5,003 nt of DNA from a virus (IMGVR_UViG_2681813273_000013); one strand, 5' to 3'; shown: positions 1 through 4,733, counted from the first letter of the stretch. Program-made: numbers and translations. The notes: generated from the sequence alone by a model not told the origin.

Positions 1-173
1 TGTCAGTTATCATCTTCGGTTACGGTTATCGGCAGAACGCCCTGCCGCTGACAAGAGCTTATTTGCCTGACCAATCTACTCCACATGATAGATAACTATC
101 ATTTATAGCATTTGGCTTATTAGCCTTTATTTTTCATTGAGTTGCAAACAATAAGCTCGTCAAAAACAGTAAA

Positions 174-240
174 ATTAACTACACCATTAACTACACCGTT
201 CCACGAACAATATCGAACAACCACGAACAAAGATCAACAC
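174..240. repeat. Tandem direct repeats: 2 x 12 bp ATTAACTACACC (174-185, 186-197), then 10-bp-phased CGAACAA units (204-210, 214-220, 224-230; degenerate TCAACAC at 234-240)
   Basis: Read directly from sequence; exact 10-bp periodicity; lies in a region with no convincing ORF. Confidence 0.6.
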
Positions 241-420
241 GCTTTAATCGTTATCATTTTCCGGCTATCAGTCATGAAACCAGTTATCGGCATCAGGCCC
301 ACCAGCGTGAAGCGTTTTTCATTTTTCGCGGGTATAAAAAATCGATGGGGCTGGCAGTCCGGAAGACGTCAGGGTACAGAGATTTGACCCGCCCCTCCCT
401 GTGCATGCGCACAATAAGTA

Positions 421-446
421 ACCGAAGGCGGAATTCCGCCCTCGGT
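421..446. repeat. 26-bp near-perfect palindrome ACCGAAGGCGGAATTCCGCCCTCGGT centred on GAATTC (one mismatched pair)
   Basis: Reverse complement matches itself except A426/C441. No T-run on either side, so not a canonical intrinsic terminator. Confidence 0.6.
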
Positions 447-570
447 ACTCACATATGAGAAACGATATTTCTTCCACCGATACCCTTTATTTGGGTATCG
501 CGAGTAAGCCCCAAAATCTGGGTGTTACTCTTACTACCCAAACTACGGGTAGTTTCCGTAGTTTCATAGT

Positions 571-592
571 CGAGTTGCAGATCTGCAACTCG
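571..592. repeat. 22-bp perfect palindrome CGAGTTGCAGATCTGCAACTCG, part of a cluster of stem-loops spanning 478-645
   Basis: Exact self-complementarity. Flanked by hairpins at 478-500 (8-bp stem CGATACCC/GGGTATCG), 543-561 (CTACGG/CCGTAG), 606-621 (AGTGCA/TGCACT) and 624-645 (CGGTAA/TTACCG). Confidence 0.6.
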
Positions 593-639
593 CCACCAGT
601 TGCTAAGTGCATTTTTGCACTTTCGGTAATATCAACCAG

Positions 640-921
640 TTACCGCCGTAAGTGCTCCGGCTTCCTCCACTGGTAAGTATTTTTCGCGCTCTCCCTCCGT
701 TGTTGAGAACGGCGACGGTATGCCAGCAACTCAAGAACTCTGGTTCGTATGTTGCGCATATCCACGCCGTTAAGCTCAATACCGTCACGGCGCATTACCT
801 CATCCACCACACGCGCATAATTTTCAGCGGTCACGCTGTCCGGTTGCATGGCCTGTTCGTCAACCTGCTGGCTGATTCCGGCGACGCGGCGGATTAATCC
901 CAGTATTTCGGCTTCTGTCAT
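640..921 (-). CDS. Hypothetical protein, 93 aa, function unknown
   Basis: ATG start with a G-rich RBS-like stretch (GGGGG) a few nt upstream; composition more protein-like than the overlapping plus-strand ORF 652-897; same strand as neighbouring genes. No recognisable motif. Confidence 0.4.
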   Translation of the reverse strand: MTEAEILGLIRRVAGISQQVDEQAMQPDSVTAENYARVVDEVMRRDGIELNGVDMRNIRTRVLELLAYRRRSQQRRESAKNTYQWRKPEHLRR

Positions 922-955
922 TGTGCCCCCATCGCGCTGGTTAAGAAAACAAGCT

Positions 956-977
956 CAGATTTTTTGTAAAGAATCTG
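956..977. promoter_or_regulatory. Inverted repeat CAGATT-N10-AATCTG, about 35 nt upstream of the 93-aa ORF start; candidate operator
   Basis: 6-bp arms read from sequence, in an AT-rich intergenic region between terminator 1152-1175 and the ORF start at 921. No clean -35/-10 could be assigned. Confidence 0.3.
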
Positions 978-1057
978 TCACGCTAAAAGATGTTGAACAA
1001 AAATTAACCACAATCATCATCTTTTTTGCATCAACTACATTAAAAACAACAGGTTAC

Positions 1058-1151
1058 ACACATGATGATGATGACGATAAAACCACAAAAATGCGCTTTT
1101 TTCCGCGCCGACCCGCCCCGTGGACAGGCCCCCCCCACCAGGAGGACCCGC
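1058..1151. repeat. Copy A of a ~95-bp non-coding repeat with GC-rich core CCCGCCCCGTGGACAGGCC (1112-1130)
   Basis: Aligns with 3636-3727 at roughly 85% identity with small indels; contains a purine/pyrimidine trinucleotide tract, a GCGC-T6CC-GCGC hairpin, the 19-nt identical core and CCACCAGGAG. The indels break any shared reading frame. Confidence 0.8.
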
Positions 1152-1175
1152 AAAAAAGGCGGCTGCTGCCGCCTT
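1152..1175 (-). terminator. Rho-independent terminator for the capsid gene (minus strand)
   Basis: Minus strand reads AAGGCGGC-agca-GCCGCCTT followed by a T-run, beginning 4 nt after the stop codon at 1180-1182. Confidence 0.75.
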
Positions 1176-1179
1176 GTTC

Positions 1180-1938
1180 TCATGAAGAAATCGCTCTGAC
1201 CATTCCGCGATAATCCAGAGCAGCAACGCCAGCATCAATGCGGACCTTCCAGGCCACACCGTCAACAATAAAGCCCTCCTGCTGCTCAAGGTAAGGCTCG
1301 TCATTACCGTCAAGATAAGCCACCTCAATTGTGTCCGTTCCCTGTGCTGAAAGCATGTACCATTGCTTATCACTGACTTCATCAAGGCGGGGATCGACAA
1401 TAATATCCAGTTGTTTGTGGTACGGGTTATATGAACCACTGTTTGTATCGGCACCGAAAGGCGTGGTTGAGTTAACCATTTGCAACGCTCTGTCTTCCAG
1501 AGCCGCAGGAACAAGAAGGAATTTTGGCACAATATTCAGCACCTCACCGTTTTCATCCCTCTGTGTGCGCATTGCACGGCGTGCAATGCCAAGCCCTGTA
1601 GTGCTGACTCCGTTATCAATATCATTTCCGTGTTTTTTGCTGAACAGCGGTATACCGTCAGAAAGCTTTGTGTTTCCTGTCAGCACCAGATGAACCAGAT
1701 TACCCACCGTTCTGGCGGCTGCTCGCCCCATTGCCTGTGGGATAACTGTTAACTGATTCAGGTCATCGTTAATAATCGCCTGTCGGGTAATGCTGAAAAT
1801 ATTTCCGTAAGTTGCCAGCGCGATTGGTTCGCCACGGTCACTGGTGGTGATGTATTTATATTCCGCGCCTTCCGGCACTTTGTTTAATGTAGAGAAGCCA
1901 TTCAGGCCAACACGACGTGCCTCATGGAAGTTTGACAA
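1180..1938 (-). CDS. Major capsid protein, HK97-fold-like, C-terminal ~250 aa; probably lacks its own N-terminus
   Basis: Position directly after a prohead protease; segments such as ATYGNIFSITRQAIINDD resemble my recollection of the HK97 gp5 pattern (S-x-R-Q-x-hydrophobic-x-DD). The only in-frame start is a TTG with a weak RBS, and 252 aa is short for this fold. Confidence 0.65.
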   Translation of the reverse strand: MSNFHEARRVGLNGFSTLNKVPEGAEYKYITTSDRGEPIALATYGNIFSITRQAIINDDLNQLTVIPQAMGRAAARTVGNLVHLVLTGNTKLSDGIPLFSKKHGNDIDNGVSTTGLGIARRAMRTQRDENGEVLNIVPKFLLVPAALEDRALQMVNSTTPFGADTNSGSYNPYHKQLDIIVDPRLDEVSDKQWYMLSAQGTDTIEVAYLDGNDEPYLEQQEGFIVDGVAWKVRIDAGVAALDYRGMVRAISS

Positions 1939-3047
1939 TGAACCTTTTTTCGTCCACTGGCGGAACGTTTCGCCGCTGTGTTCACGGATTTTTCAGCACC
2001 ACCAGCAAGGATATAAGTAAAATCGCTGCTGCTGTGGGTGAATGCCGCGTTTACTATCTGCGAGCGTGTGCTGTAGCTGCCTGTGCTTATGCCGCGATGG
2101 GTTAATGATGCCTGTGCCATATCGAAAAGGCTCATCATGGCGTAAGGGTTGCCGCGTTCTGCCTGTTCATGTCCCAGACGCGCATTAAGCCCCTGACGCA
2201 TTGCATCGCCGGTTATGTTGCCGTTATCCGTGTACGCGTAGTAAAGATTTGCGGGGGTGGTTTTGTTTGTCGGTGTCGATTCTTTACCCATAGTGAGTAA
2301 AAGGCGTTCGCGTGCATCCTCAACGCTACAGCCTGAATCAGCAAGACAACTTATAGCCAGGTCGTTATATCTTCCATTGAACGTGCCAAACAATTCACGT
2401 ATCCCGTTGAGTCGTTCCTGTTCTCCGCTGCCAGTTTTCTGGCTGATCATGCTTTTAATATTTTCCGGCATATTCGAAAAATCTCCGATTCGTTTTGATT
2501 CAATTCTGGCCATTGCTGTAATCGCGGGTATAACCTCATCTGCGAAGCCATTAGCCTTACACTCATTGCCATCCATCCAGGTTTCCGCCTCCATCATGGC
2601 GGTGATTTCCTGTTTGCTCCTGCCCGTTCTTCCGGCGTAGGTTTCCGCCATCGTGTCGCCCAGCTTGTCCATCAGGTCAGCAAAGCGGCGAACGTCGCCC
2701 GACACTCCGGCAGTAACACCACGGGGGGCATGTATCATCATCATCGCGTTTTCAGGCATAACGATGTGATCGCCACACATGGCAATAAACGAGGCCATAG
2801 AAGCCGCCATGCCTTCAATGTGTACAATTTTCTTTGCCGGATGATTTTTCAGGGCGTTATAGATAGCCAGCCCTTCAAAGATGTCGCCACCAGGTGAATG
2901 GATGCGAAGATGGATTTCAGGCACATTACCGCACGCGTTGATCTCGTCAGTAAGTGCCGATGCTTTTACACCGTACCCGCCGATCTCGTCATAAATGCGT
3001 ACATGTACAACATCAGCCATAGCCTTAATGGAAAACCATGTTTTCAT
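1902..3047 (-). CDS. ClpP-family (S14) prohead serine protease, with a C-terminal extension that looks like scaffold plus capsid N-terminal region
   Basis: Motifs HSPGGDIFEG (ClpP NSPGG), GMAASMASF (catalytic Ser in GxAASM) and MMMIHAPRG (catalytic His) in the N-terminal ~190 aa. ATG start overlaps the upstream ORF stop as ATGA. Terminates 36 nt into the capsid ORF, in a different frame. Confidence 0.85.
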   Translation of the reverse strand: MKTWFSIKAMADVVHVRIYDEIGGYGVKASALTDEINACGNVPEIHLRIHSPGGDIFEGLAIYNALKNHPAKKIVHIEGMAASMASFIAMCGDHIVMPENAMMMIHAPRGVTAGVSGDVRRFADLMDKLGDTMAETYAGRTGRSKQEITAMMEAETWMDGNECKANGFADEVIPAITAMARIESKRIGDFSNMPENIKSMISQKTGSGEQERLNGIRELFGTFNGRYNDLAISCLADSGCSVEDARERLLLTMGKESTPTNKTTPANLYYAYTDNGNITGDAMRQGLNARLGHEQAERGNPYAMMSLFDMAQASLTHRGISTGSYSTRSQIVNAAFTHSSSDFTYILAGGAEKSVNTAAKRSASGRKKVHCQTSMRHVVLA

Positions 3048-3238
3048 AGCCAGGCTCCTAACGTTGCCCTGTACCAGTATTCAACCGCGCTTCTCGCAAT
3101 CTGCCCTTTCGTGGGTACTGGCATTCCAGGGTGATGACTTTTAATGAACTGCTGATAGCGTTCGAGCTTCTCCATAGTTCCGGCGTCTATGTGCACTGTT
3201 GCACTTTTATCCGGTTTTCTGCTGTTGTTCTCTGGCAT
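3044..3238 (-). CDS. Small hypothetical protein, 64 aa, possibly a ribbon-helix-helix DNA-binding protein
   Basis: Start chosen at the third in-frame ATG (3238) because GGAGG lies 7 nt upstream; the track ORF begins at 3271 with no RBS. Stop overlaps the protease start. Predicted strand-helix-helix pattern (TVHIDAG / MEKLERYQQFIK / KGQIARSAVEYWYRA) is inference only. Confidence 0.45.
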   Translation of the reverse strand: MPENNSRKPDKSATVHIDAGTMEKLERYQQFIKSHHPGMPVPTKGQIARSAVEYWYRATLGAWL

Positions 3239-3313
3239 AAGTCTGCCTCCGTTATGATTAACGGGCATCATTATTGATCGATAAAACTGGTAAATAAATC
3301 ATTTTCTATCTAA

Positions 3314-3339
3314 AAATCAGATTATGTGTTTTCTGATTT
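3314..3339. promoter_or_regulatory. Inverted repeat AAATCAGA-N10-TCTGATTT, about 80 nt upstream of the 64-aa ORF start; candidate operator
   Basis: 8-bp perfect arms read from sequence in an AT-rich region; a weak possible minus-strand promoter (ATGACA, ~16 nt, TAATCT) overlaps it. Confidence 0.3.
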
Positions 3340-3379
3340 TTGTCATACCAGCAAAAGAATTGACTAATTATTGCCACGC

Positions 3380-3626
3380 NNNNNNNNNNNNNNNNNNNNN
3401 NNNNNNNNNNNNNNNNNNNNNNNNNNNNNNNNNNNNNNNNNNNNNNNNNNNNNNNNNNNNNNNNNNNNNNNNNNNNNNNNNNNNNNNNNNNNNNNNNNNN
3501 NNNNNNNNNNNNNNNNNNNNNNNNNNNNNNNNNNNNNNNNNNNNNNNNNNNNNNNNNNNNNNNNNNNNNNNNNNNNNNNNNNNNNNNNNNNNNNNNNNNN
3601 NNNNNNNNNNNNNNNNNNNNNNNNNN
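3380..3626. other. Assembly gap, 247 N
   Basis: Run of n characters. ORFs in the track that cross it (3324-3644, 3364-3714, 3371-3655) are artefacts. Confidence 1.
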
Positions 3627-3635
3627 AACTTAAAC

Positions 3636-3727
3636 TGGTGGTGATGGTGACATAAAAATCAAAAAATACGCCTTTTTCCGCGAACCGCCCGCCCCGTGGA
3701 CAGGCCACCCCCACCAGGAGTACCTAC
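3636..3727. repeat. Copy B of the ~95-bp non-coding repeat (core at 3688-3706)
   Basis: Aligns with 1058-1151 at roughly 85% identity. The left end abuts the N gap, so the copy may be truncated by the assembly. Confidence 0.8.
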
Positions 3728-3750
3728 AAAAAAGCCGGATTGCTCCGGCT
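3728..3750 (-). terminator. Rho-independent terminator for the SSB-like gene (minus strand)
   Basis: Minus strand reads AGCCGGA-gcaa-TCCGGCT followed by T6, 15 nt after the stop at 3766-3768. Confidence 0.75.
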
Positions 3751-3765
3751 TCTGTCACTCGTTGC

Positions 3766-4188
3766 TTAAAACGGTATGTTATCCCCGTACGGATCATCAT
3801 TCCCCGCCTGTTGTTTGGCCCTGTTCAGTGCATCAGTGGCCTGCCCCTGTTGGCCTTTTTTACCGCCCGGTCGCGCCGTTCTGGCACTGATTACACTGTC
3901 TGCGATAACCTGCCAGCCCTGCCGCGTTTCTCCGTTCTGGCCTGTCCACTGGCTTACCTGCATGTTACCCGCCACGCTCACCAGCTCGCCTTTCTGGTGC
4001 TTTGCCAGTGCGTCAGCCTGTCTGCCAAACGCCAGGACGGATAACCATATCGTCGCCGTTCCGTCATCTGCCTGGCTGCACGGCAGGGGAACCGCCATAC
4101 TCGCCATCGTCATTTGCGTACCCTTGCTGGTGGTCTTTAACTGCGGGTCAGCCACCAGCCGCCCGTAAGCCGCTATCTGTGCTGTCAT
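3766..4188 (-). CDS. ssb: Single-stranded DNA-binding protein (SSB family), 140 aa
   Basis: Pattern G-R-L-x-x-D-P at the N-terminus, W...FG...KG...V..G....W.G..R in the middle, Gly/Gln-rich linker, and an acidic C-terminal tail DDPYGDNIPF resembling the canonical DDDIPF. Start ATG overlaps the upstream ORF stop as ATGA. Confidence 0.75.
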   Translation of the reverse strand: MTAQIAAYGRLVADPQLKTTSKGTQMTMASMAVPLPCSQADDGTATIWLSVLAFGRQADALAKHQKGELVSVAGNMQVSQWTGQNGETRQGWQVIADSVISARTARPGGKKGQQGQATDALNRAKQQAGNDDPYGDNIPF

Positions 4189-4430
4189 GCTGTCTGCTCT
4201 CCGGTTTTAACGTTGATGGTTGTCACCTGTTCCGCTTCGGCAATCTCCCGTTCTGTCAGCGTGGCAAAGTTTGCCGCCGTCGTGGTCATGAATGCGCTTA
4301 TCAGTTCGGGATGTGCTTTCGCGTATCCTTCCCCGGCGTTGCGGTCGATGATTTTTATCGCCACCCTCAGCCAGTGTTCTGTCAAATCAAGGGCGTGAGA
4401 TTGTGGTTTTTTGGCGTGCTTCGTTGTCAC
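4185..4430 (-). CDS. Hypothetical protein, 81 aa, translationally coupled to the SSB-like gene
   Basis: GTG start with GAGG 8 nt upstream; stop overlaps the ssb start; protein-like composition; no recognisable motif. Confidence 0.45.
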   Translation of the reverse strand: MTTKHAKKPQSHALDLTEHWLRVAIKIIDRNAGEGYAKAHPELISAFMTTTAANFATLTEREIAEAEQVTTINVKTGEQTA

Positions 4431-4474
4431 AGGCTTTACCTCACAGCAATAAAATAAAATTTTTGCATTTTAAC

Positions 4475-4702
4475 CCTTCACCTGTTCACCTTTTGCAATT
4501 TTCCCTTTTTATTCATGATGTTAATGGGTTAACAGTTTCACAAAAACTATTCACCAACTGTTCACCACTGTTCACCCTTAAAGCTCAATAAAGAATCAAA
4601 AAGGTGAACAGTGAATAGTTTGGTGAACAGTTCATAAATAACTGTTCACCCTATAATATACTGATATAAAAGACATTTATTGCAGGGTGAACAGTGGTGA
4701 AC
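4475..4702. repeat. Iteron array of octamer TGTTCACC / GGTGAACA; resembles the P4 alpha-binding type I iterons of ori/crr
   Basis: Perfect TGTTCACC at 4482, 4558, 4568, 4642; perfect GGTGAACA at 4602, 4621, 4685, 4695; degenerate copies at 4475 (CTTCACC), 4547 (TATTCACC), 4610 (GTGAATAG). Seven copies extend to the 10-mer ACTGTTCACC. AT-rich context. The identity with P4 iterons is from memory of the literature, not a search. Confidence 0.75.
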
Positions 4703-4733
4703 AGTTATTCCATAAGTTTAATTTTTTCCATCG

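Follow-up and report, generated by a model that had tools for sequence, protein, structure and literature searches.

Two copies of a non-coding element in a phage satellite as probable lambda-type cos sites of two lambdoid helper types

What is a conserved non-coding element of some 95 bp that stands twice in one short stretch of viral DNA, each time behind the terminator of one gene and ahead of the next gene? The question is raised by IMGVR_UViG_2681813273_000013, of which 5,003 nucleotides, referred to below as the window, were analysed. An initial annotation, made from the sequence alone, had left the choice between a small RNA, an operon-junction regulator and a signal for recombination or packaging, and had not recognised a cos site. 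Here it is argued that both copies are very probably lambda-type cohesive-end (cos) sites of a satellite of the phage-inducible chromosomal island (PICI) type, because their motifs, their spacing, the position of the element in phages and the start points of phage records agree.

The repeat itself is clear. Its 19-nt core, CCCGCCCCGTGGACAGGCC, occurs exactly twice in the window, at 1112-1130 (copy A) and at 3688-3706 (copy B), and 200 shuffles of the window yielded 0 matches even with 2 mismatches tolerated (chance expectation 0). The copies align with 80% column identity over ~150 columns, which include CCACCAGGAG and several 1-nt indels, and a repeat search groups them as family D1 (1054-1175 and 3630-3751), so that both the presence of two copies and the indels between them are borne out. 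Other parts of the first description need amendment: the homology of copy A to phage cos sites extends to ~960 and hence beyond the limit given earlier, copy B is cut by a run of N, and the GCGC-loop-GCGC hairpin has 4 bp in copy A and is merely CGC...GCG in copy B.

All genes of the window lie on the minus strand. Read on that strand, each copy follows a hairpin with U6, and its parts come in the same order, namely the terminator of the upstream gene, 2 nt, cosQ, 21 nt, cosN (ACG/GGGCGGG, the slash marking the predicted nick), a short GC hairpin, a trinucleotide tract and an IHF-like site. The corresponding features are as follows.

960..1149, minus strand: cos copy A, a complete cosQ-cosN-cosB site of VT1-Sakai type (nhmmer match to the cos profile at 1150..1076, E = 1.4e-16)
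1143..1149, minus strand: cosQ heptamer GGGTCCT of copy A, the same as lambda cosQ, 21 nt ahead of ACG/GGGCGG (20 nt in lambda)
1107..1121, minus strand: cosN of copy A, ACG/GGGCGGGTCGGC, with a predicted 12-nt 5' cohesive end at 1118..1107, the nick being placed by homology
1093..1108, minus strand: GCGC-A6-GCGC hairpin directly right of cosN in copy A, located by alignment; lambda has CGCGGGTTTTCGC there
1061..1078, minus strand: trinucleotide tract ATCGTCATCATCATCATG of copy A, (TCA)4 class, at +41 to +58 from the cohesive end, a proposed TerS-binding element
1044..1056, plus strand: IHF-like site AAACAACAGGTTA of copy A, 12/13 matches to WATCAANNNNTTR
1013..1021, plus strand: further (TCA)3 tract, in the opposite orientation to the first and R2-like by position (inverted repeat I15; kept in VT1-Sakai)
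3627..3725, minus strand: visible part of cos copy B, 1720a-02/CP-1639 type (nhmmer match at 3725..3652, E = 5.7e-17)
3719..3725, minus strand: cosQ variant AGGTACT of copy B, 21 nt from cosN
3683..3697, minus strand: cosN of copy B, ACG/GGGCGGGCGGTT, with a predicted cohesive end at 3694..3683
3635..3652, minus strand: trinucleotide tract GTCACCATCACCACCAG of copy B, (CCA/TCA) class, at the R3 position

The visible part of copy B comprises the cosQ variant, cosN, the hairpin, the tract and the start of the IHF site. Written out, the minus strand of copy A reads terminator-U6-GC-GGGTCCT-(21 nt)-ACG GGGCGGGTCGGC GCGGAAAAAAGCGC and so on, and that of lambda GGGTCCT-(20 nt)-ACG/GGGCGGCGACCT CGCGGGTTTTCGC. 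In an alignment of 11 cos sequences including lambda, the conserved blocks are GGGTCCT/AGGTACT, ACGGGGCGG and the CGCGG hairpin that follows, and the nick region ACGGGGCGG is invariant in both copies, lambda, CFT073 phage 4, VT1-Sakai, 1720a-02 and CP-1639. Differences within cosN are confined to bp 7-12 among the compared sites and to bp 8-12 between copies A and B; the right half of cosN (bp 7-12) is also the part that commonly varies among lambda-like phages, in which cosQ is reported to be highly conserved (PMC4669245). The stretch between GGGCGG and CGCGGAAAAA (e.g. 1107-1112 and 3683-3688) varies in sequence and in length, from 3 to 6 nt, among close cos sites, and, should the two nicks be separated by 12 nt, cohesive ends from different copies and helpers would not fit one another.

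The resemblance to lambda (cosQ-cosN-I2-R3-I1-R2-R1) extends to the GC hairpin right of cosN, to an element at about +42 to +58, to an IHF-type site and to an inverted second element (R3-I1-R2). The predicted cosB of the window copies has the tract at +41 to +58, which coincides with lambda R3 and with the proposed R3-PICI as positioned by Murialdo and Feiss (2022; PMC9026076), then an IHF consensus at +59 to +76 and, in copy A, the inverted second tract. B-type, cdtI-type, mEp460 and Kluyvera sites match the IHF consensus perfectly, A-type sites with one mismatch. The copies differ from lambda in their 21-nt spacing (a cosQ-cosN pattern with the 20-nt spacing of lambda finds no match in the window), in tracts unrelated to the lambda R3 sequence, and in an overall identity of ~52% in the core and <32% in cosB.

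The position of the element in phages points in the same direction. In VT1-Sakai, 1720a-02, CP-1639 and an O157:H7 prophage it lies between Rz and the gene of a 158-aa protein, followed by terL, and this protein scores as small terminase (phrog_141, E = 6e-66), so that the site stands just upstream of terS as it does in lambda. Copy A shares 90-92% identity with the cos regions of the VT1-Sakai and Stx2 (Shiga toxin 2) phages. When 11 prophage loci of eight genera, among them Erwinia, Serratia, Rahnella, Morganella, Yersinia, Pasteurella and Actinobacillus, are searched with a profile of the 77-nt core, each gives one match, ~4.5 kb upstream of its capsid gene, in the canonical layout cos-terS-terL-portal-capsid. 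The records of phages cdtI and Tritos open exactly at GGGCGGGAGCGT (GGGCGGG), and that of mEp460_4F5 opens 5 nt upstream of the GGGCGGG start point, record starts that may correspond to DNA ends of virions; for mEp213/LLS phages, which have fused protease-coat heads, a 12-nt 5' overhang, GGGCGGCGCGCT, has been inferred (PMC12315714). The cosQ heptamer and ACGGGGCGG shared with lambda, a spacing of 20 or 21 nt and the place between Rz and terS mean that cos had been set aside wrongly at the outset, and of the earlier "recombination or packaging signal" it is the packaging signal that these motifs, spacing and phage position support. The cosQ variant of copy B was considered as a mark of a decayed site, an idea rejected on the ground that prophages and satellites of Rahnella, Morganella, Yersinia, Moellerella and Pasteurellaceae regularly have AGGTACT as the cosQ of their cos sites (loci L015, L019-L022, L024, L026, L039, L044, L052, L056 and L081); among related E. 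coli islands the cosQ of copy B is either AGGTACT or GGGTCCT.

Could the element instead encode an RNA, whether a small one or one that regulates in cis at operon junctions? Its placement between transcription units, adjoining terminators, would suit such a role, as would a 14/15 inverted match of the core inside ssb (3938-3952). However, an Rfam scan of the whole window with E up to 10 returned nothing on the element, solely spurious microRNA matches on the iterons of the presumed origin, and a promoter scan of the flanks of the copies gave no promoter-like site. Fold z-scores for both copies on both strands were -1.6, -0.1, -1.55 and -0.97 and the predicted structures are unlike between copies, which leaves no significant or shared structure beyond the terminators on either strand. 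The match to ssb (3938-3952 against 1117-1130 and 3693-3707) resembles other chance inverted matches and is lost in A-type copies with CCTGAACACGG, so antisense pairing was rejected and the match is probably due to chance. Moreover, the conservation fits the logic of a DNA site, also in phages, where the element stands between Rz and terS. On these grounds an RNA function is very unlikely, and the operon-junction regulator is likewise left unsupported.

The abundance of the element might suggest a generic intergenic repeat of the REP, BIME or ERIC kind, or else an attachment or recombination site. Depending on which of three queries is used, related copies are found in 955 to ~2,000 of 5,426 complete E. 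coli genomes, in up to 7-12 places per genome and almost always without annotation; 397 of these genomes contain the ssb 3' end joined to cos (at least 80% coverage), and 150 the capsid gene joined to cos A. Yet the copies inspected all lie in prophages or satellites at cos positions and none is scattered among chromosomal genes, and an attachment site is contradicted by the island ends, which lie elsewhere, the chromosomal flank beginning near window position 285. Searching other genomes with the core, as had been suggested initially, has thus turned up further copies, and their setting makes a generic repeat or attachment site extremely improbable.

If both copies are cos sites, it remains to be asked why one island should have two. 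The part from cosQ to the hairpin is 83-97% identical across all E. coli copies and phages, whereas the cosB arms fall into two groups, one (winA, L002A, VT1-Sakai) with 81-84% and the other (L002B, 1720a-02, CP-1639) with 88-91% mutual identity, and with 51-58% identity between them. The cosB of copy A is 84% identical to that of VT1-Sakai (85%, or 71/84, when measured on the near-identical L152). The visible cosB of copy B matches 1720a-02 at 26/28 positions as opposed to 17/28 for VT1-Sakai, and its full cosB, with the gap filled from L152, matches 1720a-02 at 78/83 (94%) as opposed to 44/84 for copy A. The TerS proteins of VT1-Sakai and 1720a-02 diverge in a similarly uneven manner, with 34/66 identical residues in the DNA-binding domain (residues 1-66) and 88/92 in residues 67-158, a pattern also known for the specificities with which lambda and 21 package DNA (PMC4669245).

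Across phages the tracts fall into the classes (TCA)4, CACCATCACCACC, (GCA)3 and (GGC)3, of which copy A has the first and copy B the second. In phages of Serratia, Rahnella, Pasteurellaceae, Morganella, Yersinia and E. coli the class co-varies with the N-terminal sequence of TerS: (TCA)4 tracts are found with ...APGSN.K.KLY, CCA-class tracts with ...GGHESNLKLY, and the (GCA)3 and (GGC)3 tracts with another TerS family. Because of this co-variation the tract is proposed to be the recognition element of TerS. Among phages, the capsid fusion of the island is closest, with 51-52% amino-acid identity, to those of the VT1-Sakai- and 1720a-02-type phages, that is, to the phages whose cos sites are copied.

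The arrangement is conserved. Of the 31 IMG/VR loci whose capsid gene is 92-100% identical, 23 have room on both sides, and every one of these carries both copies, the B-type cos ~545 nt upstream of the capsid gene and the A-type cos 33 nt downstream, and the same two-cos layout is seen in L002, L090, L091 and L092. In a sister lineage to which L092 belongs (capsid ~62% identical), the upstream cos is of the cdtI type with (GGC)3 and the downstream one is mEp460-like. In the window both copies are oriented such that packaging would follow the direction of the island genes. Three cos sites are present in some related islands, such as the EcCICFT073-like L093 (2706-2779, 3575-3647 and 6013-6087) and L132/L133, with one of the sites inverted and with three different cosB arms.

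Islands of the same type are also found inside the terL gene of prophages, at TerL residue ~330-337, the arrangement that Mageeney et al. (PMC10111431) describe as a helper-embedded PICI. In L091/L094, L114 and L121 the prophage around the island is of A type in cos and TerS; in L097 it has a B-type cos, and its TerS shares 99% identity with 1720a-02 TerS. Judging from these genomes, the island occurs naturally together with phages of both the types represented by its cos sites. The A and B copies here, the cdtI and mEp460-like copies in the sister lineage, the three cos sites of an EcCICFT073-like island and the embedding in A-, B- and cdtI-type prophages together suggest a broader explanation, to which somewhat less than an even chance is given: E. 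coli PICIs of this lineage may keep a "portfolio" of complete cos sites from different TerS-specificity classes of lambdoid (including Stx-converting) helpers, such that one satellite could be packaged by several helper types without an adaptor such as Rpp, the tract being the determinant read by the wing/helix of TerS. The sites of such a portfolio would probably have been copied by recombination within the conserved cosQ-cosN part and the GGTTGTTTTTTGTTC flanks.

Under the mechanism proposed for the two cos copies, TerS of the helper would bind the arm with the matching trinucleotide tract once the island has been induced and replicated, IHF would bend the adjacent site, and TerS would position TerL on cosN for staggered nicks after ACG that leave a 12-nt 5' end starting with GGGCGGG. 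Packaging would then run toward the 93-aa gene and round the concatemer, with a second cut at a downstream cosQ-cosN once the head is full. With two arms, the same island could be packaged by helpers of either specificity, and no adaptor protein would be required.

Two cos sites in one island have a precedent in EcCICFT073 (Fillol-Salom et al., 2018, PMC6092414; Fillol-Salom et al., 2019, PMC6739421; Murialdo and Feiss, 2022, PMC9026076), where both are functional by experiment (PMC6092414, PMC6739421). Its cos1 is needed for transfer by lambda and phi80, and both sites have lambda-like cosQ and cosN with no recognisable phage cosB (PMC6092414); the cosB of cos1 is recognised by a heterodimer of Rpp and helper TerS (PMC6739421). 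In CFT073 (L006), cos1 lies at 25529 (+), 101 nt upstream of the 144-aa rppA, and cos2, which is inverted, at 26340 (-). The present island has the same order of int, alpA-like helix-turn-helix (HTH) gene, primase, ssb, capsid gene and 93-aa last gene, as well as two lambda-type cos sites with conserved cosQ and cosN; cos1 stands behind the same terminator hairpin as copy B, and its R3 region, GGTGACACCACCACCAC, resembles the copy B tract. The two islands differ in the capsid gene, which is lambda-E-type in EcCICFT073 and a protease-capsid fusion here, in the arrangement of the sites, which there are inverted and flank rppA and here are direct, ~2.5 kb apart and flank the capsid module, and in sequence, the lambda-like sites of EcCICFT073 being just 51-56% identical to the window copies in the core. 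They also differ in their likely need for Rpp, which is required there since cosB is unlike that of the helper, whereas the present island lacks rpp and terS and both of its arms are phage-like. No rpp follows ~100 nt downstream of either copy, and the cosB arms are 85-94% identical to phage arms. No rpp or terS gene lies next to either copy in the window, L002, L090 or L091, such a gene being present in L092 and L093; nor does an open reading frame (ORF) of 135-153 aa with an HTH follow either copy, copy A being followed by the 93-aa phrog_1561 gene and copy B by the 75-aa phrog_4934 gene.

By its sequence, then, the island is a PICI of the cos kind with two sites and is more like the cos-type S. 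aureus pathogenicity islands (SaPIs) and 11capE than like the Rpp-dependent type. SaPIbov5, SaPIbov4 and 11capE are likewise satellites without terS that carry the cos of their helper (PMC5052747, PMC10111431). Two putative cos sites have been reported for SaPIbov4 (PMC6092414), and in 11capE a 258-bp stretch at the cos location is 90% identical to the helper (PMC10111431). Relatives of the present island are embedded in helper late genes, as 11capE is. The SaPIs differ in having Gram-positive hosts and unrelated sequences, and 11capE in that a single shared cos stretch is described. The lambdoid phages with fused protease-capsid genes (VT1-Sakai and Stx2; 1720a-02 and CP-1639; mEp460, cdtI and Tritos) supply the direct homologues of the window copies, and differ in having a single cos, followed by terS-terL and preceded by a GATAAnnATTATC palindrome in place of a terminator. 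A cos site in a phage satellite is already understood, and two per island have already been published for EcCICFT073; what would be modestly new is the correspondence of the two copies, in an island without Rpp, to helper terminases of two specificities. A published description of two PICI cos copies paired to two helper specificities was not found in a literature survey of incomplete coverage.

Several observations weigh against two working sites of matched specificity. Cleavage by terminase, the nick positions and binding of TerS to the tract at both copies are argued from homology and co-variation; copy B has the cosQ AGGTACT in place of the GGGTCCT of E. coli B-type phages; and the capsid gene is frameshifted, so that this copy of the island may be decaying. 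The correspondence between cos and helper is not strict, because the islands of L112 and L125 are embedded in a helper with cdtI-type cos and TerS, a cos type that they do not carry. In lambda-like phages termination is independent of cosB (PMC4669245), and a terminase that has started at one copy could therefore cut the other, leaving ends mismatched at bp 8-12. Relatives in Kluyvera, Yersinia, Buttiauxella, Moellerella and Rahnella carry one cos, after the capsid gene; a terS/rpp-like ORF follows in 5 of 6 of these loci and none is evident in the Moellerella locus. Finally, EcCICFT073 was transferred more when cos2 was deleted (PMC6092414), so that an additional cos need not be an advantage.

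The single-cos relatives and the cos2 deletion would also agree with an explanation in which both copies are cos sequences, one alone works, and the other has come along as a passenger of modular recombination, in a capsid cassette or an ssb-terminator-cos unit that brought its own cos. The ssb-adjacent terminator-cos unit indeed recurs with a B-type (L002), a cdtI-type (L092) and an A-type cos (L093), and the same terminator precedes cos1 of EcCICFT073, suggesting a mobile unit. A dead site would, however, be expected to decay, and here cosQ, cosN, the tract and the IHF site are kept in both copies in 23/23 loci, each cosB is still 85-94% identical to that of a living phage lineage, and the island is found within helpers of both types. 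A passenger copy is thus judged unlikely, though it keeps an appreciable share of the probability.

A different role for an extra cos would be that of a decoy that mainly titrates or misdirects the helper terminase and lowers helper yield. PICIs often interfere with helper packaging (PMC6739421), the island is without Rpp, a known interference factor of E. coli cos PICIs, and a replicating island would offer many cosB sites of helper type. However, a functional cos on a replicating island would serve transfer anyway, so the roles would not exclude each other; as the main function, a decoy appears rather improbable.

The interpretation as packaging sites matters because cos sites determine which helpers mobilise a satellite, and the candidate helpers here include Shiga-toxin-converting phages of enterohaemorrhagic E. 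coli (EHEC). If there is one copy per specificity, this would be a simple, protein-free way to widen the helper range of a satellite, and the islands and phages would form a natural data set for the code of TerS-cosB recognition, with tract class set against TerS domain. Cos sites of this kind, of which there are up to a dozen per EHEC genome, are almost never annotated; to an unprepared reader they resemble conserved non-coding RNAs, and they may break short-read assemblies.

The ends of the two copies next to cosQ and next to the assembly gap involve the following features.

1152..1175, minus strand: intrinsic terminator of the protease/major-capsid fusion gene, stem AAGGCGGC/GCCGCCUU then U6 (-15.3 kcal/mol, z = -3.3), ending 2 nt before cosQ of copy A
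3728..3755, minus strand: intrinsic terminator of ssb, GAAGCCGGAGCAAUCCGGCUU then U6 (-15.4 kcal/mol, z = -4.2), ending 2 nt before cosQ of copy B
3380..3626, no strand: run of 247 N covering the distal part of copy B's cosB and the intergenic stretch upstream of the 75-aa gene

Both terminators were established by folding, the promoter/terminator scan not listing these minus-strand hairpins. The earlier statement that their stems differ (GGCGGC/GCCGCC against GCCGGA/TCCGGC) in the same position and at equal strength is correct. The phage copies of the element have no terminator upstream of cosQ. The capsid-gene terminator is found in L002, L090, L091 and L092 as well, and the ssb hairpin stands ahead of cos1 of EcCICFT073 and, in L002 and L090-L093, ahead of the cos next to ssb, whatever cos type follows. 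As the ssb hairpin is constant across cos types and absent from phage cos sites, cosQ is the left boundary of the exchangeable cos module, and the terminators lie outside the conserved signal, each closing a transcription unit, that of ssb or of the capsid gene, directly ahead of a cos. In phages the place directly upstream of cosQ is taken by a conserved palindrome, GATAAnnATTATC (lambda, L004, 550-570; also L001, L005, L007 and L008), which the terminator replaces in satellites and which resembles a Fur box.

The run of N had been attributed to the element being repeated often enough to break the assembly. The two island copies were rejected as its cause, since they share just 19 exact bases, which is too few. 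Near-identical prophage cos copies elsewhere in the genome may have caused the break, because the hidden stretch is 94% identical to the phage cos region, which may be repeated several times per genome. In L152, whose flanks are 100% and 99.9% identical to the window, 188 nt, at 1378-1565, stand in place of the 247 N, and the first of them are the rest of a perfect IHF site (TAAGTTATTGATA). L152 (IMGVR_UViG_2690316346_000015, 1-4497) starts exactly at the last base of the window and runs into a second, tandem satellite, which adds a third cos and a further capsid gene, 62% identical.

The setting of the two copies is that of an island between clpS and cspD. Window positions 1-285 are chromosomal DNA upstream of clpS, and the remainder is the right end of the island. 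The 90% identical island of L002 (E. coli O111:H8) comprises genes for an integrase, an HTH regulator, an Icd-like protein, DUF4222, a primase, an 81-aa protein, Ssb, a 64-aa protein, a ClpP-like protease/major-capsid fusion and a 94-aa protein. As judged from the L002 annotation, this gene plan is that of a Gram-negative PICI, for which int, an alpA-type regulator, pri-rep with an adjacent ori, a length of ~10 kb and few or no virion genes are characteristic; the capsid/protease gene is its single virion gene. The genes of the window that adjoin the two copies are the following.

3766..4188, minus strand: satellite ssb, upstream of copy B (Pfam SSB, E = 3.9e-16)
3044-3271, minus strand: 75-aa gene (phrog_4934), after copy B and before the capsid gene, without a Pfam match
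1180..3047, minus strand: ClpP-like prohead protease/major capsid fusion between the cos copies, frameshifted (intact L002 homologue: Pfam Phage_capsid_4 and CLP_protease)
640..921, minus strand: 93-aa gene (phrog_1561, function unknown), downstream of copy A, in the place of terS in phages and of rpp/terS in some islands

Compared with the intact 1890-nt genes of L002 and L090, the capsid fusion lacks 13 nt at ~1984 and 9 nt at ~1197, near its 3' end, and is split into ORFs of 381 and 252 aa, which makes it either a pseudogene or an assembly error. The 75-aa phrog_4934 protein precedes the capsid gene in islands with the protease-capsid fusion, and an ORF of similar size stands there in lambda-E-type islands. 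The 93-aa phrog_1561 gene has no Pfam match and is the last gene, adjoining the last cos, in 6/6 E. coli islands examined. Just downstream of the 3' end of the primase gene, at 4470-4720, iterons GGTGAACAG form a dense direct and inverted array, presumably the replication origin, which draws the spurious plant and animal microRNA matches in Rfam.

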